IMG/VR virus record: IMGVR_UViG_2648501299_000003 | Location: 1-19,113 of that record | Strand: one strand, 5' to 3' | Source of the DNA: a virus | Lineage: Duplodnaviria; Heunggongvirae; Uroviricota; Caudoviricetes | Length of the DNA stretch: 19,113 bases | Part shown: piece after piece, positions 1 through 13,719 of the stretch | Numbering within the stretch: the stretch's first letter is position 1 | How the letters are laid out: each line of letters opens with the position of its first letter | Position numbers and translations under genes: made by a program | Notes under the pieces: generated by a model | The model's database searches: none | Told to the model about the DNA's origin: nothing | The model's input: only the letters and a program-made list of their open reading frames with translations

Positions 1-192
1 TCAGGAGCATTTCTGATTAACGCCACCGTTAAGAATCCACCCTTCAACAGCTTCACGAAGGTATGATTTGGGGTGGGTTCTGACTGGCTTCGGAAATCCG
101 TGCCGTTTGGTATAGTTCCAGATTGTCTGACGTGATGAAACACCGAGCTTGTTCATCACTTCTTTCTCAGGAATCAGGCTGGTATCGGTCAT
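1..192 (-). CDS. xis: AlpA/Xis-family excisionase-like DNA-binding protein (63 aa)
   Basis: Complete ORF (ATG 192-190, stop 3-1) with GGAG 7 nt upstream; small basic protein with AlpA-like pattern (GVS..TIW...FPKPV....W) at the integration-proximal end of the leftward operon; int expected beyond the window start. Confidence 0.6.
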   Translation of the reverse strand: MTDTSLIPEKEVMNKLGVSSRQTIWNYTKRHGFPKPVRTHPKSYLREAVEGWILNGGVNQKCS

Positions 193-271
193 CTTAATTC
201 TCCAGGCAAAAATAAACCGCCATACAGCGGCTCTATCAGATATGAACAGGCCTCATCGAGTGTGAGGCGGG

Positions 272-616
272 TTAGTCCTTGCGTAGCTCGCTGATTCTTC
301 TGTAAGTCTCTGGTGCTTTGTTCCCGTACGTCTTCATTTCAGACTTCAACAGAGCAACGAGTGAATCCCATTCGTTGAGGATTCCTTTGAATGCCGGAAC
401 GCGCTTTGCAACCTTGTCGAATGAATCTCTGATTTCTGGAATCTGCTCAACAAGTGCAACGCATCGCCGAAAGTCTGCTGCGTCATGGGGAGCGCCGAAG
501 TGATGACCATAGATATTCTTTTTCAGTCCACATGCGATTGAGGCAAGAGTTGCGCTACTGATGCCGACATCGCCAGTCGATTGCCATTTCAAAACCTTCA
601 TAGCCAAATCTGACAT
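272..616 (-). CDS. hypothetical early-left operon protein (114 aa)
   Basis: ORF with ATG at 616-614 and GGAG 7 nt upstream; no family recognised. Confidence 0.6.
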   Translation of the reverse strand: MSDLAMKVLKWQSTGDVGISSATLASIACGLKKNIYGHHFGAPHDAADFRRCVALVEQIPEIRDSFDKVAKRVPAFKGILNEWDSLVALLKSEMKTYGNKAPETYRRISELRKD

Positions 617-627
617 TTCTTGTCTCC

Positions 628-654
628 ATAAAACAAAACTCGCCGTAGCGAGTT
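628..654 (-). terminator. intrinsic terminator inside the leftward operon
   Basis: Minus-strand hairpin, 7-bp stem 637-643/648-654 (AACUCGC-UACG-GCGAGUU), followed by UUGUUUUAU (636-628), immediately upstream of the RBS of the 272..616 gene. Confidence 0.55.
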
Positions 655-716
655 CAGATAAAAGAAATCCCCGCGAGTGCGATGATTGTTATTCACCTTT
701 GACGGCAAGTTGCAGG

Positions 717-1514
717 TTAGCCACGGTTAACCTCCAGTTGTGGTGCTGCTTCTATAGCAGCCCTGTAACCAGCAGCATGACCGCGAAAGTTAGCAATCTC
801 TGATAGCCACGCTTTAATCATGGCCTGAGTTGGCTCCTTCGGCACCATAACCCAACCATCCGGAGTTACCGGAGAGTTGCCAGCCTGAACAGTAGGCATA
901 TCAGGACCTTTGCGAATCGCCCTGGCAAGATCGATTGGGTCGTCGTACAACCAGTCACCTGTTTGCGGATGATTGGCTTCTGCCAATTGTGCAGCCCACT
1001 CCAGGCCGTCTTTGTGTCCTTGAAGATAGTCCAGCGGCAACTCATCATGTTCACTTACAGGTTCGGCCCCATGAAGCATAGCGGCGCGGCATGCGTTCCA
1101 GCCTTGAGCCTTAGCTATTGCCACAACTGCATCGGTAAAGAACATTCTCGTGGTATCTGGCTCCGGCATTTCATCCGGCACCGCTTGCTGCGTTAACCGT
1201 GGAGCCGTCAGCGACTCCAATTCAGCAATCCGCTTCTCTGCTGCTTCCAGTTCATCAAGTAGCGCCAGCACGGTAGCTGGACTGGCTGCGGCGATGAATT
1301 CAGCATTGGCCTGCTGTTCCATTTGGAAATCTTCATCGAAACCGCTTTCAGGATGCGCTCCTTCAATTCTGCAAATGGGAAGATATCCAACAACTTCACG
1401 ATGAATTAGCGCATCATCACCATCAAATCGGCCCTCTCCATATTCGAGCGACCACTCACCACACGTTGCTTTTTCTGCCGCCTCACGCAGTGCCTGATAG
1501 TCAATCTTGCTCAC
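717..1514 (-). CDS. ead/Ea22-like family protein (265 aa, GTG start)
   Basis: N-terminus [16 protein letters not shown] recalled as typical of Ea22-like prophage proteins; only in-frame start is GTG at 1514-1512, overlapping the upstream stop (GTGA). Confidence 0.6.
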   Translation of the reverse strand: MSKIDYQALREAAEKATCGEWSLEYGEGRFDGDDALIHREVVGYLPICRIEGAHPESGFDEDFQMEQQANAEFIAAASPATVLALLDELEAAEKRIAELESLTAPRLTQQAVPDEMPEPDTTRMFFTDAVVAIAKAQGWNACRAAMLHGAEPVSEHDELPLDYLQGHKDGLEWAAQLAEANHPQTGDWLYDDPIDLARAIRKGPDMPTVQAGNSPVTPDGWVMVPKEPTQAMIKAWLSEIANFRGHAAGYRAAIEAAPQLEVNRG

Positions 1515-1993
1515 TGGTCGCCTCCTTTGCGAAGCTGGTCGGCGAACAAACGTACACTAGACGCTTCACTGCGTAGAAACTTAACGGCATAATCAAAACC
1601 ACCTCGTTCTGCGTCGTCTGCTCCGTTGTCGAGGTTATCTGCGTACATCTCTACCCCCTGCGCCCGTACTTCAGCCAGGAAAGCATCGGTAGATGGGGTG
1701 TTAAGTGAAAAGTCCTGTCGGCCTGATTTCAGATACGCAATGGCGATCTTTGTTGCTGCGCATTCGACAGCGAATTTCTCTTTTTCAGCAGCCATCTTCG
1801 CGCACTTGGCCTCAAGGTTATCAATCGTGATTCCAGCAGAACGACACTCACGCAACGCCGTTTCCAGTTTTGATTCAAGTTCACCGAACTTACGGACAAG
1901 ATATTCAGCGTTTGTTTCGTTAACCTTTAAATCTCGTGGGAAGAATTTACCTTTCAGAAAACCATCCATCTCAATTAGTGACATTTGTTTCAT
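1511..1993 (-). CDS. hypothetical coiled-coil protein (about 160 aa)
   Basis: ORF track 1511..2011; preferred start ATG at 1993-1991 because it overlaps the stop of the upstream ORF (ATGA) and has GGAG about 9 nt upstream. Confidence 0.5.
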
Positions 1994-2187
1994 TTCTTCC
2001 CACTCCGCCACATCGCATTCAGATATTTGTTTTGATTTACTGATGGAAAAGAATTTCTCTTAAGCAATTCCTCTCTCGATGGCATTGGCTTTACGCGTTG
2101 GCGAATAATCATTTCTGCCGGAAGAATGCCGGGATTGTATGCAAGTCCTCTCATGGTAAATTCCTCAGTCATTACTGATAGCGCCAT
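1990..2187 (-). CDS. hypothetical small protein (65 aa, start uncertain)
   Basis: ORF whose TGA stop overlaps the next gene's ATG; alternative start at ATG 2172. Confidence 0.4.
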
Positions 2188-2461
2188 AGCGTGAGCGGTA
2201 ATTACGCAGGCGCTGGTCGATATATTCAGGGAAGTGGGTATATGTGGCCTTGCGGAATGGTCGGATTGATGTTTCGTTTATTCGGTCTTTTTCCTGTTTT
2301 TCTGCGAGTTGTATATCGCGTCGGTACTTCCGTTCTGCTTTTGTTTCTGGTGGCAGAGCAAGAAACGCGCCGAGATTATTCTTGATACTTTCCAGCACCT
2401 CCGATACGGAATTGCCGGAACAGCGGCGCGGGTCATCCGCACCATACAGAGGCGCTGGCAT
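2165..2461 (-). CDS. hypothetical protein (98 aa)
   Basis: ATG 2461-2459 with AAGGA 7 nt upstream; begins 24 nt after the SSB stop. Confidence 0.55.
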
Positions 2462-2484
2462 AATGGAATCCTTATGCTGCTACT

Positions 2485-2868
2485 TTAGAAGGGAATTGAA
2501 TCGTCGTATTCAGGATGATTTTGATGATTGCTACTTTGCTGCTGTTGGCTGTTTCCTGAAGTTGCAAATCCAATCTTTGCATTCAGTAATTCAAGAGTGA
2601 TTGATTGACCATTTTGCCCCTGATAAACATCAACCCTGATGTTTTCTCCGGTAATTTCTACAATGCCACCTTCAACAAGAACACTACGGTAGTAATCCGC
2701 TTGCGCTCCCGGCTTGGCAAATACAACGGCGCTGTAGTTTGTCCATTCTTTCTTTTTTGTCTGGCGATCGTAATACTGAACGCCAGCACGGATGTTGAAT
2801 CCGATATTTTCCCCGGCCTGAAACTCTCTTGCGGGCTTGTTTAGTCTTACAGTAATCGAATGTGCCAT
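2485..2868 (-). CDS. ssb: phage single-stranded DNA-binding protein (SSB-like, about 127 aa)
   Basis: C-terminal tail ...PEYDDSIPF resembles the SSB acidic tail DDDIPF; start taken as ATG 2868-2866 overlapping the erf stop (TAATG) rather than the longer TTG-initiated track ORF. Confidence 0.6.
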   Translation of the reverse strand: MAHSITVRLNKPAREFQAGENIGFNIRAGVQYYDRQTKKKEWTNYSAVVFAKPGAQADYYRSVLVEGGIVEITGENIRVDVYQGQNGQSITLELLNAKIGFATSGNSQQQQSSNHQNHPEYDDSIPF

Positions 2869-3473
2869 TAAGCAGCCGCTCCTTCTAATTCGTCTCGTCT
2901 GATGTTGTAAACGTCCTGCGCTTTTTGCTGCTCCGGTGTGCCTTCGAGCATCTTCCACGCTTTGGCGAACGCCTGTTTAAGCTCTTCCACGGTGTTTTTC
3001 TGCAATGCTGCGTCAGTGAATGCTTTTAGAACCTGTTCAGGTGTATGTGATGGTTTTGATTGCTTTGCTGCTGCGTTCTGCTGATGTTTATGCTCGTCTG
3101 TATCTGCATCTTTCGCATCATCAATGCCGAACAAACCATTGAGGCAATACTTGCGTGCATAAGAGCTTGTAGCGCCCGTAACTTGTGCAGAATCCATTCC
3201 TTTCTTGCTTTCTTCCTCTCGTGCAAGAGCGGTTGCTGTATGACTGTTTTCGCCATCGGTAATAGTTGCCGTGGCTTTCACGTAATACCGATCACCAATC
3301 AACACAACTTCATCGCTGATTGATAAAAACAGACCATTCAGTAACGGCTTAACGCCTTCAAGAATATCTTCGCAGCTTCTGTATTTATATTTACCGAATG
3401 AGTTGTACTGATTTTTTGGCGCGTTCAGATTCTCCTGAATAGCTGCCAGTCTTGCGTAAAATTCTTTGCTCAT
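2868..3473 (-). CDS. erf: Erf-family single-strand annealing recombinase (about 201 aa)
   Basis: MSKEFYARLAAIQENL...YARKYCLNGLFGIDD matches recalled P22 Erf family features; ATG at 3473-3471 (track ORF begins at an upstream TTG). Confidence 0.75.
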   Translation of the reverse strand: MSKEFYARLAAIQENLNAPKNQYNSFGKYKYRSCEDILEGVKPLLNGLFLSISDEVVLIGDRYYVKATATITDGENSHTATALAREEESKKGMDSAQVTGATSSYARKYCLNGLFGIDDAKDADTDEHKHQQNAAAKQSKPSHTPEQVLKAFTDAALQKNTVEELKQAFAKAWKMLEGTPEQQKAQDVYNIRRDELEGAAA

Positions 3474-3483
3474 ATGATTGTTC

Positions 3484-3654
3484 TCAGAATGGACACGGCA
3501 CAAGTAAATAACGCTGATTTAATACTTCAGTCTTTGCCGCATTTAAAAATACGCGAACACCTTCACGATCTCCCTTCTGGCGATACATTAACGCCTGCTG
3601 CGTGTACATGCGTCTCTGTAACTTGCTCTCCTTCACTGTGGTTGCAAGTGACAT
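3484..3654 (-). CDS. small hypothetical protein (56 aa), overlaps the next ORF in another frame
   Basis: ATG 3654-3652 preceded by a perfect AAGGAG 6 nt upstream (3660-3655); protein-like composition throughout; below the 60-aa track cutoff. Confidence 0.45.
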   Translation of the reverse strand: MSLATTVKESKLQRRMYTQQALMYRQKGDREGVRVFLNAAKTEVLNQRYLLVPCPF

Positions 3655-3733
3655 GAATATCTCCTTCGTTACCGATTAATTCTTTCATCTGACGAATGAA
3701 TTCTTCGTCTGACCAGTTATCTGTAAAGATCAT
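3563..3733 (-). CDS. small hypothetical protein (56 aa), 3' part overlaps 3484..3654
   Basis: ATG 3733-3731 overlaps the kil stop (ATGA coupling); N-terminal half looks protein-like, C-terminal half is low complexity. Confidence 0.35.
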   Translation of the reverse strand: MIFTDNWSDEEFIRQMKELIGNEGDIHVTCNHSEGEQVTETHVHAAGVNVSPEGRS

Positions 3734-3882
3734 TTCCTGCGATACAACGGAAGGTTGATAGCTGATTTCATCGCTTTATTTGCTTCAAGCCACATTTTGG
3801 AATCACCAATAAATCTGGCTATTACTGCTTTGTTCTGTGCAGCACGAAGCATCTGGTGATTAATGGCTATTTCATTGCGCAT
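3730..3882 (-). CDS. kil: Kil-like host cell division inhibitor (50 aa)
   Basis: MRNEIAINHQMLRAAQNKAVIARFIGDSKMW resembles recalled lambda Kil core (...IATFIGDEKMF...); GAGG 7 nt upstream of ATG 3882; sits immediately downstream of cIII as in lambda. Confidence 0.55.
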   Translation of the reverse strand: MRNEIAINHQMLRAAQNKAVIARFIGDSKMWLEANKAMKSAINLPLYRRK

Positions 3883-3998
3883 AATAAGACCTCAACTCTT
3901 TTCCATCCGTCACGTAATTTACGGGTGATTCGTTCAAGTAAAGATTCATTTAGTTGGAAGGCACCCATGCGAGCGCCTCCCGCGATTGCGTAAATCAT
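3867..3998 (-). CDS. cIII: CIII-like FtsH inhibitor (43 aa)
   Basis: MIYAIAGG...ESLLERITRKLRDGWKR matches the recalled conserved core of lambda CIII; AAGGA 7 nt upstream of ATG 3998. Confidence 0.75.
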   Translation of the reverse strand: MIYAIAGGARMGAFQLNESLLERITRKLRDGWKRVEVLLCAMK

Positions 3999-4022
3999 GG
4001 GTGGTTCCTTATGTTGGTTTTA

Positions 4023-4991
4023 TTAGTAGGTTATTTTTGTTGCGAATACTTCGCCTTTTACGATGGCTGTTATGATATTTTTAGCAACATCTTCTGATGC
4101 GCCAACCTTGATAAGGTCAGCAAGTATTTTGTTATTTACTTCTTTCCGGTGAGCTTTATCCTTTGCTCTACGCTCTTCTTCGTCCTTGATTCTTTTTTCT
4201 TCTGCTATTCTGGCTTGCTCTTTTGCTTCAGCCTCGCGCCGGATTCGTTCAGCCTCCTCCTGTGCTTTTCGGCGTTCTGCTTCAATTGCCGCCTGCTTTT
4301 CTCTTTCAGCTCGTTCTGCTGCCTCTTTTGCTTCGCGCTGTGCTCGTTGCTCGGCTTCAATGCGTTCACGCTCTGCACGTTCCGCTGCGGCCTTAGCTTC
4401 TGCTTCTCGCCTTGCTGCTGCTTCAATTTCGGCTTTTGCCTTTGCTTCGGCTTCTGCTCTGGCTTTCTCTTCAGCTTCTCTTTTTAAGCGTTCTTCATGC
4501 TCTCGCTTTTCCTGCTCCGCTTTGAGTCTTGCCTCTTCTCTTTGGCGGTCAAATTCGCGATCCATCAAAATCGCTATTTCATGGTCAGACTCAATTTGCT
4601 TTGCGAGAGCTTCAGCTGCGGCCTTAGCTTCTTCTTCGGCTTTAATCCGTGCCTGTTCCTCCTCATAATCAGTAAGAGGCTGGCGCGCCTTGGCTTTCAG
4701 TTCATCAAGGCGATCGCGCACTGTCTTGCGGTTGGCATCAATTAGCTTTGGAATTTCCTTCAGTTCAGCAACAAGGTCTTTGCCAAGACCATCGAGATAT
4801 GTTTTCGTCTGCGCAACTTTATACGCCAGAGAAGCGATCTCCTTTCTGCCCTTTGCCGTTGTGATATCAGGCACAAAGGACATAACTTCTCGTTCAACCT
4901 TTTGGAGAATTTCTTCAATCTGGTCGGCAGACTGAAATACAGTCATTGCATTTGCTTTTTCAATAACAACTAAATCTGTTACTTCACTCAT
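4023..4991 (-). CDS. coiled-coil protein with long E/A/K/R-rich low-complexity repeat region (322 aa)
   Basis: ATG 4991-4989 with GGAGGA 3-4 nt upstream; N-terminal about 100 aa and C-terminal about 45 aa look globular, flanking about 180 aa of EAEAKAKAE/ERAERE-type repeats. Confidence 0.7.
   Translation of the reverse strand: MSEVTDLVVIEKANAMTVFQSADQIEEILQKVEREVMSFVPDITTAKGRKEIASLAYKVAQTKTYLDGLGKDLVAELKEIPKLIDANRKTVRDRLDELKAKARQPLTDYEEEQARIKAEEEAKAAAEALAKQIESDHEIAILMDREFDRQREEARLKAEQEKREHEERLKREAEEKARAEAEAKAKAEIEAAARREAEAKAAAERAERERIEAEQRAQREAKEAAERAEREKQAAIEAERRKAQEEAERIRREAEAKEQARIAEEKRIKDEEERRAKDKAHRKEVNNKILADLIKVGASEDVAKNIITAIVKGEVFATKITY
4180..4560. repeat. degenerate short tandem repeats (gcttc/gcctc/tgctt-type) encoding the E/A/K/R repeat tract
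   Basis: Visible periodic nucleotide repetition; both antisense frames are open here (track ORFs 4149..4487 and 4186..4668), a signature of low-complexity repeats. Confidence 0.6.
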
Positions 4992-5003
4992 ATATCCTCC
5001 ATC

Positions 5004-5032
5004 AAAAAAATTGCCCTCACACTGGAGGGCAA
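5004..5032 (-). terminator. intrinsic terminator inside the leftward operon (tL-like)
   Basis: Minus-strand hairpin, 8-bp stem 5011-5018/5025-5032 (UUGCCCUC-CAGUGU-GAGGGCAA), followed by UUUUUUU (5010-5004), then the RBS of the 4023..4991 gene. Confidence 0.65.
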
Positions 5033-5166
5033 AGAAGATTTCCAATAATCAGAACAAGTCGGCTCCTGTTTAGTTACGAGCGACATTGCTCCGTGTATTC
5101 ACTCGTTGGAATGAATACACAGTGCAGTGTTTATTCTGTTGTTTATGCCAAAAATAAAGGCCACCA

Positions 5167-5418
5167 TCAGGCAGCCTTGTTGTAAATGTTGCAGGTATCA
5201 AGTAAGTAATTAGATGGAGCGCCATAAACTATGAATTCATCGTTTGTCGGGTCCATCTCCATCTCTTGGCCTATTGCCATTCTTGCGTCAGTGTCATCAG
5301 AGGCGAAGCATAAAACAGCCCACGCACCCATTGTTTTAAAAAGAACTGCAATTGGCTGTGGTTTTACTGAATTTGCGTTAGCGCGAAAATCACAAATCGC
5401 ACTTTCATGAAACTCCAT
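5167..5418 (-). CDS. hypothetical protein (83 aa)
   Basis: ATG 5418-5416 with GAGG 6 nt upstream. Confidence 0.55.
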   Translation of the reverse strand: MEFHESAICDFRANANSVKPQPIAVLFKTMGAWAVLCFASDDTDARMAIGQEMEMDPTNDEFIVYGAPSNYLLDTCNIYNKAA

Positions 5419-5480
5419 ATCTCACCTCAAATAAGTGGTTTGCTGCCAAAACAATGAACCATCCGGAAATTCCAGATAGT

Positions 5481-5705
5481 TCATAATTCACCCTTCAATA
5501 CTTCCAACTTACTAATCGCCGATAGATATCCGCGCTGATAGGGCATCATCATTCCTTCGAGCTTGCCACTTCTTAACTCCTCCCTGAGCAATTGTATTGC
5601 TTGATCAATAACCTCTGCCTTAGCGTCCTTTATGGCTTGCTTGCGGGGCTTTGCTTTCTGCTTTGGCAGATTTCTCAAGCATGATGGAATGTATGTCTTA
5701 TTCAT
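5481..5705 (-). CDS. hypothetical protein (74 aa) immediately downstream of N
   Basis: ATG 5705-5703 with GAGG 6 nt upstream, 3 nt after the N stop; track ORF starts one codon earlier at GTG. Confidence 0.55.
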   Translation of the reverse strand: MNKTYIPSCLRNLPKQKAKPRKQAIKDAKAEVIDQAIQLLREELRSGKLEGMMMPYQRGYLSAISKLEVLKGEL

Positions 5706-5708
5706 CAC

Positions 5709-6092
5709 TTACCTCGCCGTCAGTTGTTTGGATTTCCGGTAGCCTGCCGCGTAAAGAGCTACATTTGGAAGACACACACCAGTTTCTGGTTGCTTATGTC
5801 CAAACTCATTCGCGTACACAATGGCCGCTCTCTCCAGATTGCGTCTGTATTCTTTCTGTTGCCAGATCACGTCCTGTGCCATGAACTTAATTGGCTTAGC
5901 GTCTTCTATGCGCTCAGGCGTTTCGTGAGTACCTTTAGCCTGAATCTGCGCTCTGCTTAGAGTAGGGCGGTGTAATACTTCTGAACTTATTGCTTCTTCG
6001 CGGGCCAGTACGCCGTTAGCTAATGCCTTTGCCTTTAAACGCTCACGACGACGAGAACGTGAATTGCCTTTGAACTGAGTTCTGCGTGTCAT
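5709..6092 (-). CDS. N: N-type transcription antitermination protein, P22 gp24-like (127 aa)
   Basis: Arginine-rich motif near N-terminus (GNSRSRRRERLKAKALANG) and C-terminus LPNVALYAAGYRKSKQLTAR resembling recalled P22-type N; ATG 6092-6090 with AGGAGG 5 nt upstream; boxB lies upstream on the same strand. Confidence 0.75.
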   Translation of the reverse strand: MTRRTQFKGNSRSRRRERLKAKALANGVLAREEAISSEVLHRPTLSRAQIQAKGTHETPERIEDAKPIKFMAQDVIWQQKEYRRNLERAAIVYANEFGHKQPETGVCLPNVALYAAGYRKSKQLTAR

Positions 6093-6220
6093 ATAGACCT
6101 CCTGGTGAACTTTGGCGGTGAATACAGCCGGGCGACTAACTCCGGTCGCGTAATCATTGCAAAGCGCCTCCGCCGAGAAGATTAGCTTCTGCATTCACCC
6201 CAAAGTTCACTTTGGTTATT

Positions 6221-6235
6221 GCGCTTTGTCAGCGC
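6221..6235 (-). promoter_or_regulatory. nutL boxB hairpin (P22 type)
   Basis: Minus-strand reads GCGCTGACAAAGCGC, a 5-bp stem with GACAA pentaloop, identical to the recalled P22 boxB; about 60-75 nt downstream of the predicted pL start; no canonical boxA (CGCTCTT) found nearby. Confidence 0.7.
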
Positions 6236-6303
6236 CGTAGATTCATATTCGAATCGTTGTATATTCACCGCCCTGGTGAGTAGTGCGTCCTGCTGATGGC
6301 TAA

Positions 6304-6332
6304 ATAGTACGATGTGTACTTTATTGAGTCAA
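6304..6332 (-). promoter_or_regulatory. pL-like early leftward promoter
   Basis: Minus-strand -35 TTGACT (6332-6327), 17-bp spacer, -10 TACTAT (6309-6304); overlapped by candidate operator dyads. Confidence 0.5.
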
Positions 6333-6378
6333 TACAAAATGTTCTAAATATGATTAGTTTTTTATAACGTTTTGTATT
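6306..6378. promoter_or_regulatory. candidate OL operators (three 15-bp dyads)
   Basis: AGTACgatgtGTACT (6306-6320, perfect dyad), AATACaaaatGTTCT (6331-6345), ATAACgttttGTATT (6364-6378); share half-site ANTAC-N5-GTANT with the OR candidates. Confidence 0.5.
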
Positions 6379-6509
6379 TTATGGAGTTATATTTTGCATG
6401 GTTGTGTGGCTTGGGAGGTGATCGAGAGATCTGAATTGCTATGTTTAGTGAGTTGTATCTATTAATTTTCAAATAAATACAATTGGTTATGTGTTTTTTT
6501 GGGGGGGTT

Positions 6510-6541
6510 AGGCAAAGAAAACCCGGCGCTGAGGCCGGGTT
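6510..6541 (-). terminator. intrinsic terminator ending the cI-cargo (pRM-side) transcription unit
   Basis: Hairpin with 8-bp stem 6520-6527/6534-6541 (AACCCGGC-CUCAGC-GCCGGGUU) followed on the minus strand by UUCUUUGCC. Confidence 0.6.
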
Positions 6542-6550
6542 ATGTAGGCA

Positions 6551-6652
6551 TTATGCGGCTTTTTTGGTGTGTGCTGACGAGCGAGCCAGAATCTCGTTAA
6601 TGAGAGATCTCAGGGTCATTGCATCTTTGTGCAGAGTGGACATGGTTTTCAT
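6551..6652 (-). CDS. small ORF (33 aa) between the cargo gene and the terminator
   Basis: ATG 6652-6650 with GAGG 7 nt upstream; MKTMSTLHKDAMTLRSLINEILARSSAHTKKAA; stop is 9 nt upstream of the terminator hairpin; below track cutoff. Confidence 0.4.
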   Translation of the reverse strand: MKTMSTLHKDAMTLRSLINEILARSSAHTKKAA

Positions 6653-6721
6653 TGCGTTTCCTCGGTTTATTTTATGGTACTAGCCTAGTTCAAATAGACT
6701 ATATGAAATCTTGATTTACTA

Positions 6722-7102
6722 TTAAGGCCATTGGGTTGGTGGAAGATCGTGGGTTTTTATCTGCGTATTTGCTTCCACACATTTATCATAGTCTAATTTC
6801 TCTACAGCAAGCAATAGTGATTCAGCATACATCAATCCTTGTTTGATGTTCATAACATTTATGCTTGCACTTGCGGCATCCATATCCTTTGCTGTCTCTA
6901 CCATGTGCTCAAAGCTTTGAGCAATAGAGTCAACACCGTTTTTCATCCTTGTAAACACTAATTTTAGCTCATCAAGGCTTGGATTCGTTAGATCATACAT
7001 CCCATGCATTCCATGGGCTTCGAATAACTCTGACAACGATCTAAGGGCGAAGTTCACAGAATCAATAACTTGGTCGTACTTTTTCTTATCAAGATCATTC
7101 AT
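6722..7102 (-). CDS. immunity-region cargo protein of unknown function (126 aa), rexAB position
   Basis: ORF directly downstream of cI on the same strand in a visibly AT-rich segment; no recognisable motif or TM segment; weak SD. Confidence 0.6.
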   Translation of the reverse strand: MNDLDKKKYDQVIDSVNFALRSLSELFEAHGMHGMYDLTNPSLDELKLVFTRMKNGVDSIAQSFEHMVETAKDMDAASASINVMNIKQGLMYAESLLLAVEKLDYDKCVEANTQIKTHDLPPTQWP

Positions 7103-7168
7103 TAAAAATATAACCTTTTAACTATTTGATATTGCTGCATTTATATCAATATATGCATTTCACATATA

Positions 7169-7828
7169 TCACCCAAACGTCTCTTCAGGCCATTGACTGG
7201 CGATAACCTTGCCTACAATGTTGCAGTTCTCATTGCATGGGATGATTGGAAACTGCGGATTAAGTGGTTGCAAAAACACTTGCCCACTATCTTTGATCAG
7301 TTTTTTGAATGTGAATTCATCGCCACCAAGTCTAGCGATACAGAAATCACCAGGATCAACAGGTTGTTCAGGGTCAACCAAGATTAACATTCCATCAGGA
7401 AAGCTTGGTTTCGATCCTGCCGGAGCTGTCATTGAGTTGCCTTCAACCTCAAGCCAGAATGCAGAATCACTGGCTTTTTTAGTTGTGCTTACCCATTTCT
7501 CCGCATCACCTTTGGTAAAGGTTCTAAGCTCAGGCGAGAACATCCCGGCCTGAACATGAGAAAAAACAGGGTACTCATATTGTTTTTTAACGGGGGCTGA
7601 TGAGTATTCGCCAACAGGTGAAAATGTACCGTCGTGGTTGAATGAGACGTTATTAATACCAAGGTACTTAAACACCACACCAATCTCGTCAAGAGATGGA
7701 TGACGAGATCCGCGCAACCAGTGGCCAATTCCACCCTGCGTCATACCAAGCTCTTCAGCTAACTTCTCTTGAGTTATGCTGAGTTCTTTCATTCTGGATC
7801 TAGCCAGTTCATACCATTTCATTTTCAT
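7169..7828 (-). CDS. cI: CI-type prophage repressor (HTH N-domain + LexA/S24-like autocleavage domain, about 219 aa)
   Basis: C-terminal about 135 aa ([22 protein letters not shown]...GNSMTAP...FTFKKL...[11 protein letters not shown]) nearly identical to recalled lambda CI; N-terminal HTH domain different; start at ATG 7828 (MKMKW) or 7822, upstream TTG-initiated track extension unlikely. Confidence 0.85.
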
Positions 7829-7837
7829 ACCCTCATT

Positions 7838-7912
7838 ATTACGCTCCGTACTAAAACCATCCATGCACAAGATGTATTTTTTCGATTGCATTCCAAAAGT
7901 ACATATCGTATT
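7838..7912. promoter_or_regulatory. candidate OR operators flanking divergent pRM/pR
   Basis: ATTACgctccGTACT (7838-7852) and AGTACatatcGTATT (7898-7912), plus a weaker middle site TGCACaagatGTATT (7864-7878); same half-site family as OL. Confidence 0.5.
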
Positions 7913-7914
7913 AT
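7886..7914 (+). promoter_or_regulatory. pR-like early rightward promoter
   Basis: -35 TTGCAT (7886-7891), 17-bp spacer, -10 TATTAT (7909-7914); overlapped by the 7898-7912 operator; cro RBS GGAGG at 7933-7937. Confidence 0.5.
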
Positions 7915-7940
7915 TGTTTCATGGTTACTATGGAGGGCAT

Positions 7941-8156
7941 ATGAGCAACCTACGAAAATATCGAGAGTCACTGAAGATCTCTCAAACAACCCTTGCTAAG
8001 GCTGTTGGATGCACACAGGGTGCTATCGGACATTGGGAATCTGGTCGTCGCTTCCCAGACCTTAAAACATGCCGTGCTCTTGTTGCGTGCCTAAACAAGT
8101 TCGGCGCAAAAGTCAGTCTTGATGACGTGTTCCCGCCGGAACACCAATCCGCTTAA
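7941..8156 (+). CDS. cro: Cro-like HTH (XRE-family) regulator (71 aa)
   Basis: ATG 7941 with GGAGG 4 nt upstream, divergent from cI; HTH-like QTTLAKAVGCTQGAIGHWESG; track ORF begins at an upstream alternative start. Confidence 0.8.
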   Translation: MSNLRKYRESLKISQTTLAKAVGCTQGAIGHWESGRRFPDLKTCRALVACLNKFGAKVSLDDVFPPEHQSA

Positions 8157-8167
8157 TAAGCGGATCC

Positions 8168-8212
8168 ACTCTTTTCACAATGGACATTCGTCCTACGTCG
8201 CTGACAAAGCGA
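8168..8212 (+). promoter_or_regulatory. nutR: boxA-like element plus boxB hairpin
   Basis: boxB TCGCTGACAAAGCGA at 8198-8212 (5-bp stem, GACAA loop, same loop as nutL); upstream CACTCTTTTCACAA (8168-8181) resembles boxA but the spacer is longer than in lambda. Confidence 0.55.
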
Positions 8213-8296
8213 GCCCCAAGATATCTGACCAACTAAGGCCATATGCGTTTCAACGCATACCTTTCAACTAACTATTCACTATTGGAAAATTAACAA

Positions 8297-8596
8297 ATGA
8301 CACAAGCAAGTTACAGCAAGCCAACACAGCGAGAAATTGATCGCGCAGAAACAGATTTACTCATCAACCTGTCAACGCTTACCCAGCGCGGTCTGGCAAA
8401 GATGATTGGCTGTCATGAATCGAAGATAAGCAGAACGGACTGGAGATTTATTGCTTCGGTCTTGTGTGCTTTCGGAATGGCATCAGACATCAGTCCGATT
8501 AGCAGGGCTTTTAAGTATGCGCTTGATGAAATCACCAATAAAAAACGCCCGGTGTGCAAGACCGAGCGTTCTGAACAAATCCAGATGGAGTTCTGA
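8297..8596 (+). CDS. cII: CII transcriptional activator (99 aa)
   Basis: C-terminus ...TNKKRPVCKTERSEQIQMEF almost identical to recalled lambda CII; gene begins with GCAA-N6-GCAA (pRE site on the opposite strand). Confidence 0.85.
   Translation: MTQASYSKPTQREIDRAETDLLINLSTLTQRGLAKMIGCHESKISRTDWRFIASVLCAFGMASDISPISRAFKYALDEITNKKRPVCKTERSEQIQMEF
8306..8319 (-). promoter_or_regulatory. pRE-type CII binding site (TTGC-N6-TTGC)
   Basis: Plus strand GCAAgttacaGCAA inside the 5' end of cII, the same arrangement as lambda pRE. Confidence 0.55.
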
Positions 8597-8628
8597 GGTC
8601 ATTACTGGATCAATCCACAGGAGTCATT

Positions 8629-8790
8629 ATGACAAAACGTCGTAAGAAATACCAGGAAAAAGAAGAGATTCGACACCCTGATTCACCTGAGGGATTAGTG
8701 GTAGCCGCAGCAAATAACAGGGCGTTCGCAGAGCGCCTTGTTGGTGTTTACAGACTAGCCAAAGCAGGAGTGAAACATGGGCGTCGTTAA
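8629..8790 (+). CDS. small basic ORF (53 aa) between cII and O
   Basis: ATG 8629 with AGGAG 5 nt upstream; overlaps the O start by 14 nt; below track cutoff. Confidence 0.35.
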   Translation: MTKRRKKYQEKEEIRHPDSPEGLVVAAANNRAFAERLVGVYRLAKAGVKHGRR

Positions 8791-9667
8791 GTTAGCTGAT
8801 TACAGGCATAACCCTGTACAACATCAGGAGGCATCCAGTATGGGGTATGTCTCTATACACCGCCAGTTTATGGACAGCAGGCTCTATAAGGACTCTCAGG
8901 CAGTACATCTTTGGCTTCACTTAATCCTCAAGGCTAATCACGAATCTACTGTCGTCAATACGGATATCGGTCCGATAACTGTTGATCGCGGTCAGATGAT
9001 AACTGGACGCCCGTCGCTGGTCAGAGAAACATTCATCCCCGACAACAAAGTTCGGAGCTTATTGCGGACTTTTGAGTCGAAAGGGATGCTTAATATTTGC
9101 TCGATGGGGAAGAAATTTAGCCTGTTTACAATCGTTAAATATGACGATTTTCAGGCAAAAAATTGTCCAACGGTTGTCCAACGGTTGTCCAACGCAAACA
9201 GCAGTAATGGCGCGGCTCTCAGCGGAGATTGTCCAACGGTTGTCCAACGGTTGTCCATAAACAATAATATAAATAATATCTCTAATACTGACGTATTAGA
9301 GAGTGCCACAGCAGACAAAAAGTCTGACAAGAAAAAACCTTCCGTTAGCTGTCAGGATGTTGTCGATGCTTACCACGAAATCCTTCCTGAAGCGCCAAGA
9401 ATCCGCGCACTGAATGACAAGCGTAAAAACCAGATCCGAACGTTCTGGCGCAAAGCCGGAGTGATAACCCGCCAGCTTGACGGGCATGGGTTCACGATGC
9501 AGGACTGGAGAAATTATTTGAGCTACGTAGGCGAAAATTGCCGATGGATGTTCGAAGAGCGCCCAAACCATCAACGCGGAACCGTCTGGCACAAAAAGGG
9601 ATTTGATTTCCTGCTTAACGACAATACCTACCTGAAAGTTCGTGAGGGTGAACACGATGACCGATAA
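8777..9667 (+). CDS. replication initiator, lambda O-like by position and internal iterons (296 aa)
   Basis: ATG 8777 with AGGAG 6 nt upstream; iteron clusters and an AT-rich tract inside the gene, as in lambda O/ori. Confidence 0.7.
   Translation: MGVVKLADYRHNPVQHQEASSMGYVSIHRQFMDSRLYKDSQAVHLWLHLILKANHESTVVNTDIGPITVDRGQMITGRPSLVRETFIPDNKVRSLLRTFESKGMLNICSMGKKFSLFTIVKYDDFQAKNCPTVVQRLSNANSSNGAALSGDCPTVVQRLSINNNINNISNTDVLESATADKKSDKKKPSVSCQDVVDAYHEILPEAPRIRALNDKRKNQIRTFWRKAGVITRQLDGHGFTMQDWRNYLSYVGENCRWMFEERPNHQRGTVWHKKGFDFLLNDNTYLKVREGEHDDR
9162..9258. repeat. origin iterons: two clusters of 11-bp TTGTCCAACGG repeats
   Basis: Three copies at 9163-9195 and about 2.7 copies at 9229-9258; a 30-bp unit (ATTGTCCAACGGTTGTCCAACGGTTGTCCA) is exactly duplicated 66 bp apart; AT-rich tract follows at 9259-9300. 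Confidence 0.75.
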
Positions 9668-11093
9668 TTTTTATGCGCCGCCCCATAGCATCGAGGCAGA
9701 GCAGGCGGTGATTGGTGGATTGCTTCTGGATGATGACAGCAGTGAGCGCGTCCAGAAAGTTCTGGCGATGCTGAAGCCTGATTCATTTTACAGCCGACCA
9801 CACAAAATCATTTTCGAAGAAATAACCAGAATGCACCGGGAGCAAAAGCCAGTAGATGGCCTGACGCTTTTCGATGAACTGGAGCGTAAATCGTTAACGG
9901 CGTCTGTTGGCGGTTTTGCTTATATCGCTGAGATCGCAAAGAACACGCCAAGCGCCGCAAACATCGTTGCCTATGCAATGCAGGTTCGCGAAACCGCAAT
10001 GGAACGCTACGCCATCAACCGCATGACTGAAGCGACGGAATTGCTATATTCCCGCAACGGAATGACTGCAACGCAGAAGTACGAAGCTATTCAGGCGATT
10101 TTCACGCAACTGACAGACCATGCAAAAACCGGATCGCGTCGCGGCCTTCGCTCATTTGGTGAGGTCATGGAAGACTGGGTTAGCGACCTTGAGAAGCGAT
10201 TTGACCCGTCAGGCGAACAACGAGGAATGAGCACAGGGATCCAATCGCTGGACAGGATGCTGTCACCGAAAGGTCTGGTGAAAGGCTCTCTGTTTGTCAT
10301 TGGCGCTCGCCCTAAGATGGGGAAAACGACGCTATACAGCCAGATGGCAATCAACTGCGCAGTGCATGAGAAAAAGCCCGCTCTGATGTTCAGCCTTGAA
10401 ATGCCAGGTGACCAGATACTGGAAAAACTGGTAGGGCAGAAGTCAGGTATTAACCCAAATATTTTTTACCTTCCGGCGACAAATGACGCTGATGACGGTT
10501 ATCAGGGTGATTACGATGGTGACTTCAACAGGGCGATCGAAACAGCCAATCGCTTGAGTGAAATCGACCTGCTTTACATCGACGACACGCCGGGATTATC
10601 TCTGGCTCAAATCGTCAGCGAAAGCCGTCGAATCAAGCGAGAAAAAGGATGTGTTGGCATGATTCTGGTCGATTACCTGACACTAATGACTGCTGAGAAG
10701 GCCGATCGCAACGACCTTGCTTACGGCATGATCACCAAAGGACTGAAGAACCTTGCCAAAGAGCTTGATTGCGTTGTTGTGCTTCTGACACAGCTTAACC
10801 GCGCACTGGAAAGCCGAACCAATAAACGCCCATTACCAAGTGACTCACGAGATACAGGGCAGATTGAACAGGATTGCGATTATTGGGTGGGGATCCATCG
10901 TGAAGGCGCTTTTGATGACAGTGTTCCACCTGGTGAAACTGAACTAATCCTTCGTCTCAATCGTCATGGCAATACCGGCACGGTGTATTGCATTCAGGCA
11001 AATGGCGCTATTTATGACACAGACCAACAGTCTGCTGAAATGCGCCGCCGTGAACGCGAGGAACCGCAGTCCAAGAAGAAAGGAGGATTCTGA
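9657..11093 (+). CDS. DnaB-family replicative helicase (about 478 aa)
   Basis: DnaB N-domain signature (HSIEAEQAVIGGLLL) and Walker A GARPKMGKTT; ATG 9657 with GAGGG about 8 nt upstream, overlapping the O stop; track start 9642 is GTG. Confidence 0.85.
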   Translation: MTDNFYAPPHSIEAEQAVIGGLLLDDDSSERVQKVLAMLKPDSFYSRPHKIIFEEITRMHREQKPVDGLTLFDELERKSLTASVGGFAYIAEIAKNTPSAANIVAYAMQVRETAMERYAINRMTEATELLYSRNGMTATQKYEAIQAIFTQLTDHAKTGSRRGLRSFGEVMEDWVSDLEKRFDPSGEQRGMSTGIQSLDRMLSPKGLVKGSLFVIGARPKMGKTTLYSQMAINCAVHEKKPALMFSLEMPGDQILEKLVGQKSGINPNIFYLPATNDADDGYQGDYDGDFNRAIETANRLSEIDLLYIDDTPGLSLAQIVSESRRIKREKGCVGMILVDYLTLMTAEKADRNDLAYGMITKGLKNLAKELDCVVVLLTQLNRALESRTNKRPLPSDSRDTGQIEQDCDYWVGIHREGAFDDSVPPGETELILRLNRHGNTGTVYCIQANGAIYDTDQQSAEMRRREREEPQSKKKGGF

Positions 11094-11197
11094 TGACCAT
11101 CTACATCACTGAGCTAATAGCAGGGTTATCGTTACTAATGGTTCTTACTGTATATATTATTAAGTATATTCTTTATGCGAATAAAAAAACTAATTGA
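11093..11197 (+). CDS. small hydrophobic single-TM peptide (34 aa)
   Basis: ATG 11093 overlapping the helicase stop (TGATG) with AGGAGG 6 nt upstream; MTIYITELIAGLSLLMVLTVYIIKYILYANKKTN; overlaps the start of the next gene; below track cutoff. Confidence 0.4.
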   Translation: MTIYITELIAGLSLLMVLTVYIIKYILYANKKTN

Positions 11198-11786
11198 TCA
11201 CGATGAGCTTCTGTCAACATTATCATATGACTCAGAAACAGGAATATTTAAATGGCTAAAAACAAATTCAGTAGTAAGAGTAAAAGGTAGTATTGCTGGA
11301 GGTGTTAGTGGTGGTTATATATGCATTAGCATAAATAATGTTTTGTATTATGCGCATAGACTTGCTTGGTTCTATGTATACAAAAAATGGCCTCCTAAGT
11401 TTATTGATCATGTAAATGGGAACAGACTTGACAATAGGATTTCAAATCTAAGACTGGCAACAGAAGAGCAGAATGCAAGAAACATTGTAGGGAATAGATT
11501 AAACACATCCGGTGCAATTGGAGTGTCTTGGTATAAGCCAACTGGCAGGTGGAAGTCTTATGTTGGTTATAAAAATAAGACAATATCGTTAGGGTATTTC
11601 GATAGCAAAGAAGATGCAGCATTCATAGCAGCACTAGCAAGAAAGAAACTATATGGAACTTATGCGAGTAAAGCACTTAATTGCGAGCATGAGCTTTTAT
11701 CTCAATTTAATAATGATGAGGATAAACTTGCGGAATATCTTAAGGAAAAATCTAAAAGGACTCGAAAGCGTGTTAAAAACAGATAA
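11175..11786 (+). CDS. HNH endonuclease with C-terminal AP2 DNA-binding domain (homing-endonuclease-like, 203 aa)
   Basis: HNH motif FIDHVNGNRLDNRISNLRLAT and AP2-like GVSWYKPTGRWKSYVGYKNKTISLGYFDSKEDAAFIAALARKKLYG; gene lies in a strongly AT-rich segment. Confidence 0.8.
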   Translation: MRIKKLIDHDELLSTLSYDSETGIFKWLKTNSVVRVKGSIAGGVSGGYICISINNVLYYAHRLAWFYVYKKWPPKFIDHVNGNRLDNRISNLRLATEEQNARNIVGNRLNTSGAIGVSWYKPTGRWKSYVGYKNKTISLGYFDSKEDAAFIAALARKKLYGTYASKALNCEHELLSQFNNDEDKLAEYLKEKSKRTRKRVKNR

Positions 11787-11820
11787 AGGCCTGCTGGTAA
11801 TCGCAGGCCTTTTTATTTTG
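11785..11820 (+). terminator. intrinsic terminator after the HNH-AP2 gene
   Basis: Stem GGCCTGC (11788-11794) / GCAGGCC (11803-11809), extended by AAA/TTT, then TTTTTATTTT to 11819; starts at the HNH stop codon. Confidence 0.7.
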
Positions 11821-11846
11821 GGGAGAGTAATTGGAGGCTTTAAGAA

Positions 11847-12074
11847 ATGAGTTCGATGACTGAGCTTGTCCGCGCCGACTTTCAGGAGAACATTGGTCGT
11901 GCAAAGCGGTACTGGTCTGCTTCCAGACTTCCGACTGGCGAGAGACAGAAAAACGCCCCTAAGCCACGTATCTATCCGCGTGACCGCGTTCTTCGCCGGT
12001 TGTTCAGACTCAACAATGAGTTTCAGCGCAACAGAATTATCCAGCAATTAGATTTGATGACTGATGATGAATGA
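11847..12074 (+). CDS. hypothetical nin-region protein (75 aa)
   Basis: ATG 11847 with GGAGG 9 nt upstream; overlaps the NinB start. Confidence 0.5.
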   Translation: MSSMTELVRADFQENIGRAKRYWSASRLPTGERQKNAPKPRIYPRDRVLRRLFRLNNEFQRNRIIQQLDLMTDDE

Positions 12075-12489
12075 TTTCATTCTGCACGAAACCAATAAAT
12101 CACAATTCTGGTTAGTTCTGAAACAAATCCTCTCTACTGGCAAACGCTGGCGAATCAAAATATCTGAGTACCGTGAAAAGCGTACATTGTCACAAAACAA
12201 TCTGCTGTGGATGTGGAATGCAGAAATAGCCGCACAGTTATCTGCTGCTTCTGCTGAAAACTTCACGCCTGAAGAGGTTCATGAGTGGCTGAAAGATATA
12301 TTTTGTCCGGCTAAAAGGGTGACGATTTTTAATATTACACGATGCGTTAAATCAACACGTCAGCTTGATATTGGAGATATGCACAAATATCTGACCGATA
12401 TTGACCAGTGGGCGCATCAGAAGGGATTACGACTAACCATTCCTGATAATTGCGAGTACCGGGATCTAAAGGAGAGGCAAGTAGAGTGA
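12064..12489 (+). CDS. ninB: NinB-like recombination protein (141 aa)
   Basis: RTLSQNNLLWMW resembles the recalled NinB SLDQN..LW motif; position at the start of the nin region. Confidence 0.55.
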   Translation: MMNDFILHETNKSQFWLVLKQILSTGKRWRIKISEYREKRTLSQNNLLWMWNAEIAAQLSAASAENFTPEEVHEWLKDIFCPAKRVTIFNITRCVKSTRQLDIGDMHKYLTDIDQWAHQKGLRLTIPDNCEYRDLKERQVE

Positions 12490-13013
12490 CTATCAAATCA
12501 AATACGCCAGCGTCAGATAGGTATCGGCTTATTGAGGATTATCTGTATTTAGACGGAGATACAGTCAGATACAAAAAGGACTCGCTAAAACACCCCAACC
12601 ACAGCCACCGGGCAGGAGATGAAATTAAAACATCGATAAATGGATCTGGGTATAGACAGGTGTGTTTTGCAGGCATTCAGATGTTTGTTCACGTAGTTGT
12701 TTTTGCGCTGCACAACAAAAGAATGCCATTGAAAAATATTGACCATATTAACGGAAACAGGCTGGACAATTCCCCAAAAAATCTTAGGGAGGCAAGCCGG
12801 ATAGCAAACAGCCGAAATCAGAAAACTAAGTGCAATAGCCGTTCTGGAATAAAAAATGTTTTATGGAACAAGCAAAAAAATAAATGGGCCGTTCAAGTGC
12901 GCACAGATTTTGGCCGGTTGTATTTTGGGCTCTATGAAGATCTTGAACTTGCTTGTTTGGTTGCCAGTGAGGCTATCAACAAATATCACGGACAATATGC
13001 GAAGGTTGTATGA
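12486..13013 (+). CDS. second HNH endonuclease with AP2 domain (about 175 aa, GTG start)
   Basis: HNH motif NIDHINGNRLDNSPKNLR and AP2-like GIKNVLWNKQKNKWAVQVRTDFGRLYFGLYEDLELA; GTG 12486 overlapping the NinB stop (GTGA) with GGAGAGG 8 nt upstream; track start 12450 is TTG. Confidence 0.7.
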   Translation: MTIKSNTPASDRYRLIEDYLYLDGDTVRYKKDSLKHPNHSHRAGDEIKTSINGSGYRQVCFAGIQMFVHVVVFALHNKRMPLKNIDHINGNRLDNSPKNLREASRIANSRNQKTKCNSRSGIKNVLWNKQKNKWAVQVRTDFGRLYFGLYEDLELACLVASEAINKYHGQYAKVV

Positions 13014-13540
13014 TTAAGCATAAATCAGAAACACCAAAAGAAGTTAGAGACTGCTGGCAAACTCCGCTTTGGCTTTTTGATGCACTGGATATTGAGTTTG
13101 GATTCTGGCTGGATTCGGCAGCGAGCGACAAAAATGCTCTGTGCGCTCACTGGCTAACTGAGGCCGACGACGCGCTCAATTCTGAGTGGGTAAGCCACGG
13201 TGCAATCTGGAATAACCCACCGTACAGCAATATCAGGCCGTGGGTGGAAAAAGCCGCTGAGCAGTGCATACAACAGCGACAGACGGTAGTTATGCTTGTG
13301 CCAGAGGATATGTCTGTCGGATGGTTCAGCAAGGCTCTGGAGAGTGTCGACGAAGTTCGCATTATCACTGATGGACGGATTAATTTTATCGAACCATCGA
13401 CAGGGCTGGAGAAGAAGGGAAACAGCAAAGGTTCCATGCTGCTGATTTGGCGACCGTTCATCAGTCCTCGACGGATGTTTACTACCGTATCCAAAGCGGC
13501 ATTGATGACGATCGGGCAGGGCGTCAGGAGGGCGGCATGA
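13010..13540 (+). CDS. phage-type DNA N6-adenine methyltransferase (Dam-like, 176 aa)
   Basis: NPPY catalytic motif (IWNNPPYS) and WQTP N-terminal pattern; ATG overlaps the HNH stop (ATGA). Confidence 0.7.
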
Positions 13541-13719
13541 GGCGACAGCGACGAAGTATCACCGACATCATCTGCGAAAACTGCAAATACCTTCCAACGA
13601 AGCGCTCCAGAAATAAACGCAAGCCAATCCCAAAAGAATCTGACGTAAAAACCTTCAATTACACGGCTCACCTGTGGGATATCCGGTGGCTAAGACATCG
13701 TGCGAGGAATACAAGGTGA
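13537..13719 (+). CDS. ninE: NinE (60 aa)
   Basis: [23 protein letters not shown]... matches recalled lambda NinE; ATG overlaps the Dam stop with GGAGGG upstream; lies inside the longer track ORF 13447..13719. Confidence 0.75.

Follow-up and report, generated by a model that had tools for sequence, protein, structure and literature searches.

What is the function of a hairpin one arm of which is repeated beside the ribosome-binding site (RBS) of an antiterminator gene, and how can the nut site next to it have a perfect boxB and no canonical boxA? Both features occur on the minus strand at positions 6093-6235 of a 19,113-nucleotide stretch of DNA from a virus of the Caudoviricetes (IMG/VR record IMGVR_UViG_2648501299_000003, positions 1 to 19,113; hereafter the window). 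An earlier, sequence-only reading of this DNA had proposed that the repeated arm offers an alternative structure which could gate translation of the antiterminator gene N. We put at about 60% the probability that the region is the PL leader of a lambdoid prophage of the H-19B/933W family, built like the lambda N leader with nutL, an RNase III-type hairpin and the N RBS. The N gene has 97.6% nucleotide identity to H-19B N and the leader 98.1% identity to that of H-19B, and the same H-19B-type module of N plus leader is found in 933W, HK97, BP-4795 and many Stx1 and Stx2 phages. All coordinates are those of the window, RNA sequences are those of the minus strand and the features are collected in Table 1.

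The 6-bp hairpin described previously is present (its 5′ and 3′ arms are called a and a′), and the 11-mer GTGAACTTTGG at 6105-6115 of the plus strand does match the reverse complement of 6200-6210 without mismatch. Only five inverted repeats of this kind (at least 11 nt, within 150 nt) exist in the 19 kb of the window, and this is one of them. In the RNA it reads CCAAAGUUCAC (6115-6105) and, as had been claimed, lies beside the Shine-Dalgarno (SD) sequence, with C6104 as the single nucleotide between them. What was overlooked is that the pairing extends past a bulged G6116 by another 11 bp (6199-6189 with 6127-6117), giving a long helix of 22 bp which closes a 61-nt interior and places boxB, 14 nt upstream, and the SD, 1 nt downstream, at the same end. 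The minimum free energy (MFE) of the leader fold (6295-6080) is -75.6 kcal/mol with z = -4.1. The duplex of the long helix has a predicted energy of -36.5 kcal/mol and all 22 of its pairs have a probability above 0.97, while the small hairpin (-4.8 kcal/mol) has a probability of about 0 at equilibrium. The sequence-only reading had treated the two pairings as balanced alternatives and had named a fold without competition between them as evidence against itself; with energies of -36.5 and -4.8 kcal/mol, such a fold is what was obtained. A long-range structure near the N RBS, as it had suggested, does form, abuts the RBS and is homologous to that in lambda, but folding gives no support to a balanced switch. 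When nascent prefixes were folded, the small hairpin was predicted to persist until the 3′ end of the transcript reaches approximately 6112. A search of Rfam gave no match at the gathering threshold in the whole window, and 6050-6320 gave chance-level matches only (E = 2.1 and 5.5).

The lambda leader has the same order of parts and reads ...boxB-CAGCAUU-CAAAGC-AGAAG-GCUUUGGGGUGUGUG...CACACACC-A-CCAAAGC-UAACUGAC-AGGAG, the N AUG falling at +223. Lambda and the window have in common the small hairpin, whose 3′ arm is shared with the long helix, and a CUUUGG-GGUG/CACC-purine-CCAAAG core in which the purine is bulged. They differ in that the interiors are unrelated, the helix ends at about -17 from the AUG in lambda and at -13 in the window, the nutL of the window lacks a canonical boxA, and in the MFE fold of lambda, but not in that of the window, the AUG region is additionally paired with the stretch that follows boxB. 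Judged from sequence, the long helix is a homologue of the lambda N-leader stem (Steege 1987; Kameyama 1991; Wilson 1997, 2002) and more than an analogue. The lambda RNase III cuts, which reportedly lie at +88 and +197, map on the lambda sequence to CUUUGG^GG and CC^AAAG, on opposite strands and with a 2-nt 3′ overhang. An overhang of this kind is typical of RNase III. By analogy, cuts in the window are predicted between 6200 and 6199 and between 6114 and 6113, and the upstream product of such a lambda-equivalent cut (6297-6200) would end exactly with the small hairpin, which is again predicted when this product is folded. The predicted cost of opening the region from -20 to +15 around the N start is 16.9 kcal/mol uncut and 10.8 kcal/mol after this cut; the equivalent values for lambda are 11.8 and 5.1 kcal/mol, a drop of the same size (approximately 6 kcal/mol).

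The features of sequence and structure that characterise a lambda-type N leader were found in the window, namely nutL, an irregular helix of about two turns and the RBS in that order, the core of the lambda cut site, and a helix maintained by compensatory changes. In lambda, N translation is repressed by N and Nus factors assembled at NutL, and the RNA in between is highly structured (PMC5725501). A search for papers on N-leader processing in H-19B or Stx phages found none, and both cleavage and autoregulation have been shown for lambda only. The H-19B-type stem would be a new member of the lambda N-leader kind, to which RNase III cleavage and N-dependent repression may be carried over from lambda.

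The conservation of the helix was examined in leaders collected from 111 loci; a widening by one genome per species yielded only 6 loci, 3 of them useful. An ungapped alignment of both strands was made for 18 distinct lineages. Cells were paired in 90.8% of cases, as against 71.7% after shuffling (none of 500 shuffles was as high) and 35-42% with slid partners, and 14 of the 20 pairs change on both sides. The columns without any change are those of the UUUG(G)/C.AAG core, at which the lambda stem is cut. The lower helix lies outside the swapped modules described below and still covaries, being GUGAAC/GUUCAC in the window, GAGAUGG/CCAUUUC in the P22 type, GUUGGC/GUCAAU in HK620 and AUAAGC/GUUUAU in the 1717 type. 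G-U pairs are frequent in the long helix and the constraint therefore acts on this RNA strand. The helix is also present in the N leader of Stx2-1717, where the annotated coding sequence starts at an upstream in-frame ATG.

Between the same helix bases lie at least eight unrelated interior modules of 59-217 nt, each with its own complementary ends. They are those of H-19B/ST104 (the type in the window), 933W/HK97, a 217-nt type (some H-19B-like phages and Sf6/HK544), sal5/g341c, Enterobacter MII_001, P22, lambda and SfI/mEp332, with further ones in HK620, Erwinia49, Tbat2_3 and two other loci (L107 and L108). Another prophage (L072, IMGVR_UViG_2671180283_000002) shares the PL and immunity type of the window but has an N-leader interior of the 933W type, which shows that interiors have been exchanged between prophages that are nearly the same elsewhere. 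A consensus fold of the interior gave a weak result, -7.8 kcal/mol with one compensatory pair, on a partial alignment with offset locus coordinates.

The small hairpin was found in all 19 tabulated lineages and in the 1717 type, with 5-8 bp and loops of 3-9 nt. Arm a follows the changes in a′, giving CCAAAC/GUUUGG in the P22 group, CCACA/UGUGG in the 1717 type and CCGAAACA/UGUUUUGG in Tbat2_3. In the P22 and 1717 groups the corresponding segment of the 3′ strand of the long helix, a2, stays CCAAAG, so that the long helix acquires a G.G or G.A mismatch while the hairpin remains perfect; in Erwinia49 a U.U mismatch likewise affects the long helix only. Because the hairpin stays perfect where the long helix takes a mismatch, the hairpin is under selection of its own although it cannot compete at equilibrium, and a kinetic or post-cleavage role for it is plausible.

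Table 1. Features of the N leader and neighbouring sites in the window.
Feature	Coordinates	Strand	Details
PL promoter	6304..6332	-	-35 TTGACT 6332-6327, 17-nt spacer, -10 TACTAT 6309-6304
Degenerate 'boxA' CGCACUACU	6279..6287	-	+11 to +19; 4/9 mismatches to CGCUCUUUA
Hairpin UCACC-AGGGC-GGUGA	6265..6279	-	just 3′ of the boxA-like sequence; in MFE fold
Spacer-dyad hairpin GAUUC-GAAUAU-GAAUC	6240..6255	-	in MFE fold; followed by UACG 6239-6236
nutL boxB GCGCUGACAAAGCGC	6221..6235	-	exact match; predicted binding site for the N arginine-rich motif
Small hairpin	6200..6215	-	arm a CCAAAG 6215-6210, loop UGAA, arm a′ CUUUGG 6205-6200; -4.8 kcal/mol
Long helix, 5′ strand GUGAACUUUGG-GGUGAAUGCAG	6189..6210	-	in MFE fold; pair probability > 0.97; covariation; at the position of lambda nutL boxC
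Interior domain	6128..6188	-	swappable module, H-19B/ST104 type
Long helix, 3′ strand CUGUAUUCACC-G-CCAAAGUUCAC	6105..6127	-	bulged G6116; a2 CCAAAG 6115-6110
Candidate upstream open reading frame	6089-6171	-	SD GGAGG 6171-6167, AUG 6157, 22 codons (MITRPELVARLYSPPKFTRRSI), UGA overlaps N AUG (AUGA)
N RBS	6090..6103	-	SD AGGAGG 6103-6098, spacer UCUAU, AUG 6092-6090; read from sequence
N antiterminator gene	5709..6092	-	127 amino acids plus stop; Pfam PF25694 N_peptide, E = 9.8e-16
nutR	8167..8212	+	boxA-like CACUCUUUU 8167-8175, spacer hairpin 8182-8193, UACG, boxB UCGCUGACAAAGCGA 8198-8212

These results can be combined in the following scheme. By near-identity to H-19B, N would use its RSRRRER motif to bind boxB and would make RNA polymerase resistant to termination together with NusA and NusG. 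The a:a′ hairpin, which lies 5 nt past boxB, would form as the RNA emerges and hold CUUUGG until its partner is made some 95 nt later. Once 6127-6105 has been transcribed, strand exchange is predicted to give the 22-bp helix and to close the interior, in line with the covariation. While the helix is intact N translation would be low, as the RBS abuts a stable helix and lies next to the N-Nus-polymerase complex at nutL; this autorepression is modelled on lambda. RNase III would then cut at CUUUGG^G (6200/6199) and CC^AAAG (6114/6113), as the homology of the cut-site core suggests, separating nutL from an N message with the new start AAAGUUCACCAGGAGG and relieving repression. The released nutL RNA would end at a′ and a:a′ could re-form as a 3′-terminal stem-loop, a step that we infer ourselves and that would explain the strict conservation of the small hairpin.

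A tentative generalisation, which we regard as possible though doubtful, is that this is a shared lambdoid device in which a:a′ forms first, the a′:a2 helix displaces it, RNase III cuts at the 3′ edge of a′ and the hairpin snaps back on the NUT RNA, where it would protect the RNA kept in the antitermination complex or guide the folding of boxB. No description of the role of the small hairpin in such a three-strand device was found for lambda or other phages, and the strict conservation of this arrangement is the sole part that might be new. A lesser addition to this reading is that the interior would be a cassette open to free exchange, one version of which also occurs in lytic Kuravirus phages. 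If the leader works like that of lambda, N synthesis in Stx phages would be tied to the activity of RNase III, hence to the growth state of the host, and to N autoregulation. Expression from PL begins with N, and N sets the pace of the lytic cascade, which in many Stx phages with the same N and leader leads to toxin production. The comparative set supplies natural variants of the helix and natural swaps of the modules.

Several points weigh against the proposed scheme. Cleavage, N autoregulation and an effect on translation would all be carried over to this leader from lambda, as would the positions of the cuts. In the upper helix the covariation is mostly due to swaps of whole modules, with few single substitutions behind it, and the lineages are related to one another. 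For P22, a cut is predicted to lower the opening cost by only 1.5 kcal/mol (11.1 to 9.6 kcal/mol). The SD is not base-paired with the leader (mean probability of being unpaired 0.54), so any occlusion of it would be steric; a model in which the SD is sequestered by pairing was rejected on the same value. The 3′-terminal-hairpin role of the small hairpin belongs to the proposed model, and given that H-19B N needs fewer host factors than lambda N, an autorepression complex of the lambda style may not form in the same way.

This last point also bears on an alternative which we consider unlikely, that the helix is passive and modulates N translation or mRNA stability from its place beside the RBS, with neither RNase III cleavage nor N-dependent autorepression. 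The end of the helix at -13 from the N AUG and the rise of approximately 6 kcal/mol in opening energy are both compatible with it, and the lambda repression complex may differ where the requirement for host factors is reduced. Against it, the most conserved part of the leader is precisely the duplex where lambda is cut, and a 22-bp, two-turn helix has the classic size of an RNase III substrate. Nor would occlusion of the RBS explain why arm a is conserved.

A little less probable again is a coupling of N to the candidate upstream open reading frame (ORF; AUG 9 nt downstream of its GGAGG), translation of which through the 3′ strand would melt the helix and allow reinitiation at N. L037, Oslo, ST104 and SEN22 have the same ORF with its SD and AUGA overlap, at approximately 25% divergence and with a different N gene. 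However, no such ORF exists in the 342-type, sal5/g341c, Enterobacter, P22 and lambda-type interiors, all of which keep the helix. In H-19B a 1-nt insertion joins it to N in one reading frame, and the MG40 version ends sooner. Inspected by eye, the substitutions between the window and ST104 are not biased towards synonymous ones, and an AUGA overlap arises with any N that starts Met-Thr. As a general mechanism the coupling was rejected, the ORF with a good SD being limited to the H-19B/ST104-type interior and H-19B breaking the frame.

Two further explanations are very improbable. The complementary ends could be terminal inverted repeats of modules or recombination 'boundary sequences' without a function as RNA; crossovers between nutL, interior and N types do coincide with the conserved CUUUGGGGUG and CACC-N-CCAAAG, and the CUS-3 record annotates a 'boundary sequence' nearby, but on the opposite strand the frequent G-U pairs would become A-C mismatches, the lower helix covaries outside the swapped modules and the homologous lambda stem is an experimentally known site of RNA processing. 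The equilibrium switch, in which the hairpin and the 11-mer pairing would open or close the N RBS, has in its favour that both pairings are conserved and are mutually exclusive in using 6205-6200, but it fails on an energy gap of about 30 kcal/mol, on the 11-mer being only half of the 22-bp helix and on an SD that is paired in neither state.

A second perfect 11-nt complement, also overlooked before, exists between GGCGGUGAAUA in nutL (6272-6262) and UAUUCACCGCC (6124-6114), which falls in the 3′ strand of the long helix and takes in the bulged G6116. This pairing was tried as a conserved element and rejected, its energy being -22.3 kcal/mol in the window and H-19B and falling to -8.6 kcal/mol in relatives.

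The nut site can now be considered together with the N protein. The earlier claim of an exact P22-type boxB holds, GCGCTGACAAAGCGC being found without mismatch at 6235-6221 and the 15-mer being the same as the P22 nutL boxB. At up to 2 mismatches, 0.06 boxB-like matches are expected by chance, and the only other one is the nutR site (8198-8212, plus strand). The arginine-rich motif RSRRRER at residues 12-18 of the window N is the same as in H-19B N, and its context GNSRSRRRER resembles GNAKTRRHER of P22; by its sequence, the boxB would be the cognate of this motif. In H-19B N the RSRRRER motif has been tested by mutagenesis, and antitermination has been obtained in vitro with NusA and NusG.

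The absence of a canonical boxA was likewise borne out. We take A6297 as the probable transcription start because AUCAGCAGG is identical in lambda and at the annotated first pL nucleotide of mEp234; PL is the only sigma-70-like site in 5650-6700. A 9-mer search from +1 (6297) to boxB against CGCTCTTTA gave as best match CGCACTACT (6287-6279), with 4 of 9 positions mismatched. The lambda-type boxA CGCTCTTA was not found in the same interval, where the best 8-mer had 3 of 8 mismatches. The consensus CGCUCUU(U)A is the NusB/NusE site and lies a few nt 5′ of boxB (PMC2724277), and by this standard the nutL of the window falls short of a canonical lambda/P22-type nut site in its boxA. Relatives of the P22, 2G7a, HK620, Erwinia49 and 1717 types have a boxA of the form (C/G)GCUCUUUA.

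H-19B antitermination reportedly has no need for BOXA, NusB or S10. The parts that define an H-19B-type nut site are all present in the window, namely a degenerate boxA, a spacer dyad, a P22-like boxB and an H-19B-type N. The homologue of CGCACUACU is annotated as a putative nutL boxA in mEp234 (EF120460) and is the sequence with which the annotated nutL of 27deltatox (GQ499363) begins, and a nutL 'boxA' is placed at the homologous CGCAYUACU in GenBank records from two laboratories. The title of Neely & Friedman 2000 refers to a host-factor requirement of H-19B N that is reduced in comparison with lambda N. Given this title, the near-identity to H-19B and the GenBank annotations, the missing boxA is not new, and a boxB without a boxA is a real and already known trait of H-19B-type nut sites. 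The two features that first drew attention to this locus are then a known family trait, in the case of boxA, and part of a known kind of processing stem, in the case of the 11-mer.

The spacer-dyad hairpin between boxA and boxB was missed previously. Its stem GAUUC/GAAUC is invariant among relatives, which carry six different loop sequences, and in the hairpin just 3′ of the boxA-like sequence the stem is also kept while the loop varies (AGGGC, AGGAC, AGGAU or AUGGC). The nutR of the window repeats the design of nutL. Its spacer, GGAC-AUUC-GUCC plus UACG at 8182-8197, is the equivalent of the nutL spacer dyad and is the same as the H-19B nutR spacer targeted by oligo RS663 (Sen laboratory). 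The boxA position of nutR has CGCUAUUUU in H-19B (the Sen-laboratory boxA oligo) and CACUCUUUU in the window. The H-19B nutR is described with two hairpins.

The window and H-19B are alike in boxB, in the position of the degenerate boxA, in the spacer dyad with UACG and in the RSRRRER of N (Neely & Friedman 1998, 2000; Sen laboratory), whereas PL/OL, cI and cro differ. Within the leader, C6105 gives a G-C pair in the window and a G-U pair in H-19B, the interior has AAUC in the window and AACC in H-19B, and H-19B has 1 extra nt before the AUG. The leader of P22 gene 24 has the same boxB 15-mer in its nutL and the same a/a′/a2 and long-helix architecture as the window, but has a canonical boxA (CGCUCUUUA) 12 nt before boxB, the hairpin CCAAAC/GUUUGG and another interior, and the C-terminal part of its N (gp24) is unrelated to the window N. 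There is also a likeness to the rrn leader, in which the order is boxB-boxA-boxC and the boxC strand, which follows a nut-like element, pairs with a distant complement to give the RNase III site of the 16S stem, as the strand after nutL is predicted to do in the window; the tethered antitermination complex is proposed to deliver boxC to its partner. In rrn the partner is approximately 1,700 nt away across the 16S rRNA, as against 60-230 nt, and there is neither an N protein nor translation control.

In the comparative set, each boxB type moves with its own arginine-rich motif of N, and the two form one mosaic unit (L003-L013, L103, L107-L108). GCGCUGACAAAGCGC occurs with ...GNSRSRRRERLK, GCUCCGUCAACGAGC with ...GTSRARRRERLK (Oslo, sal5), and CGGCUGAAAAGCCG or AGGCUGAAAAGCCU with ...GSAAGRRRERRA (MG40, g341c, Enterobacter). 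The leader hairpin and the helix base are unchanged across all of these types.

The start of N is placed at an upstream in-frame ATG within the structured leader in several public records, those of lambda RefSeq (L014), MG40 (L005) and Stx2-1717 (L103); the lambda RefSeq coding sequence has 133 amino acids against the accepted 107. The ATG at 6194 of the window would likewise start N early and give a 161-amino-acid ORF. An N 100% identical to that of the window is encoded on a 394-bp contig labelled Xanthomonas pisi, two contigs of metagenome-assembled genomes labelled Segatella copri carry enterobacterial N genes and leaders, and 'Campylobacter phage CJLB-4' (MW057783) equals lambda at 100% over the N leader; all of these are probably cases of contamination or mislabelling.

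The immunity region of the window is lambdoid, with cI at 7169-7891 on the minus strand (helix-turn-helix and Peptidase_S24 domains) and, on the plus strand, cro at 7941-8156 followed by a cII-like ORF. From 6300 to 8300 (cI, cro and operators) even the closest phage records, ev207, ev017, PhiR57_1 and 2G7b, share only approximately 88% identity with it. The cI is CP-933H-like, and the immunity type of the window as such was not among the records of the phage collection. The gap between cI and PL (6520-7102, minus strand), which corresponds to the position of lambda rex, contains a 126-amino-acid ORF (6722-7102), an ORF of approximately 33 codons (around 6550-6651) and a strong terminator-like hairpin (6541-6520). 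Beyond N, a 340-amino-acid ORF (4023-5045, minus strand) has a long, highly charged repeat region rich in Glu, Ala, Lys and Arg (...AEAKAKAEIEAAARREAEAKAAAERAERERIEAEQRAQ...).

Two observations concern the interior modules. In one Enterobacteriaceae prophage (L108) the interior contains at approximately 530-575 a sequence resembling a tRNA T-arm, GUGGUUCGACUCCAC; ARAGORN found no tRNA in the interiors, including this one. The H-19B/ST104-type interior (UCGGCAAUGAGUACGCGGUCAGGRUUAG; 6128-6175, minus strand) resembles, over approximately 45-67 nt and at about 80% identity, an intergenic stretch in lytic coliphages of the genus Kuravirus, namely SU10 (L102, NC_027395, 1501-1567), 172-1, WFI101126, PGN6866 and others. 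The Kuravirus copy also lies inside a long irregular helix, of approximately 26 bp and with a fold z of -2.9.

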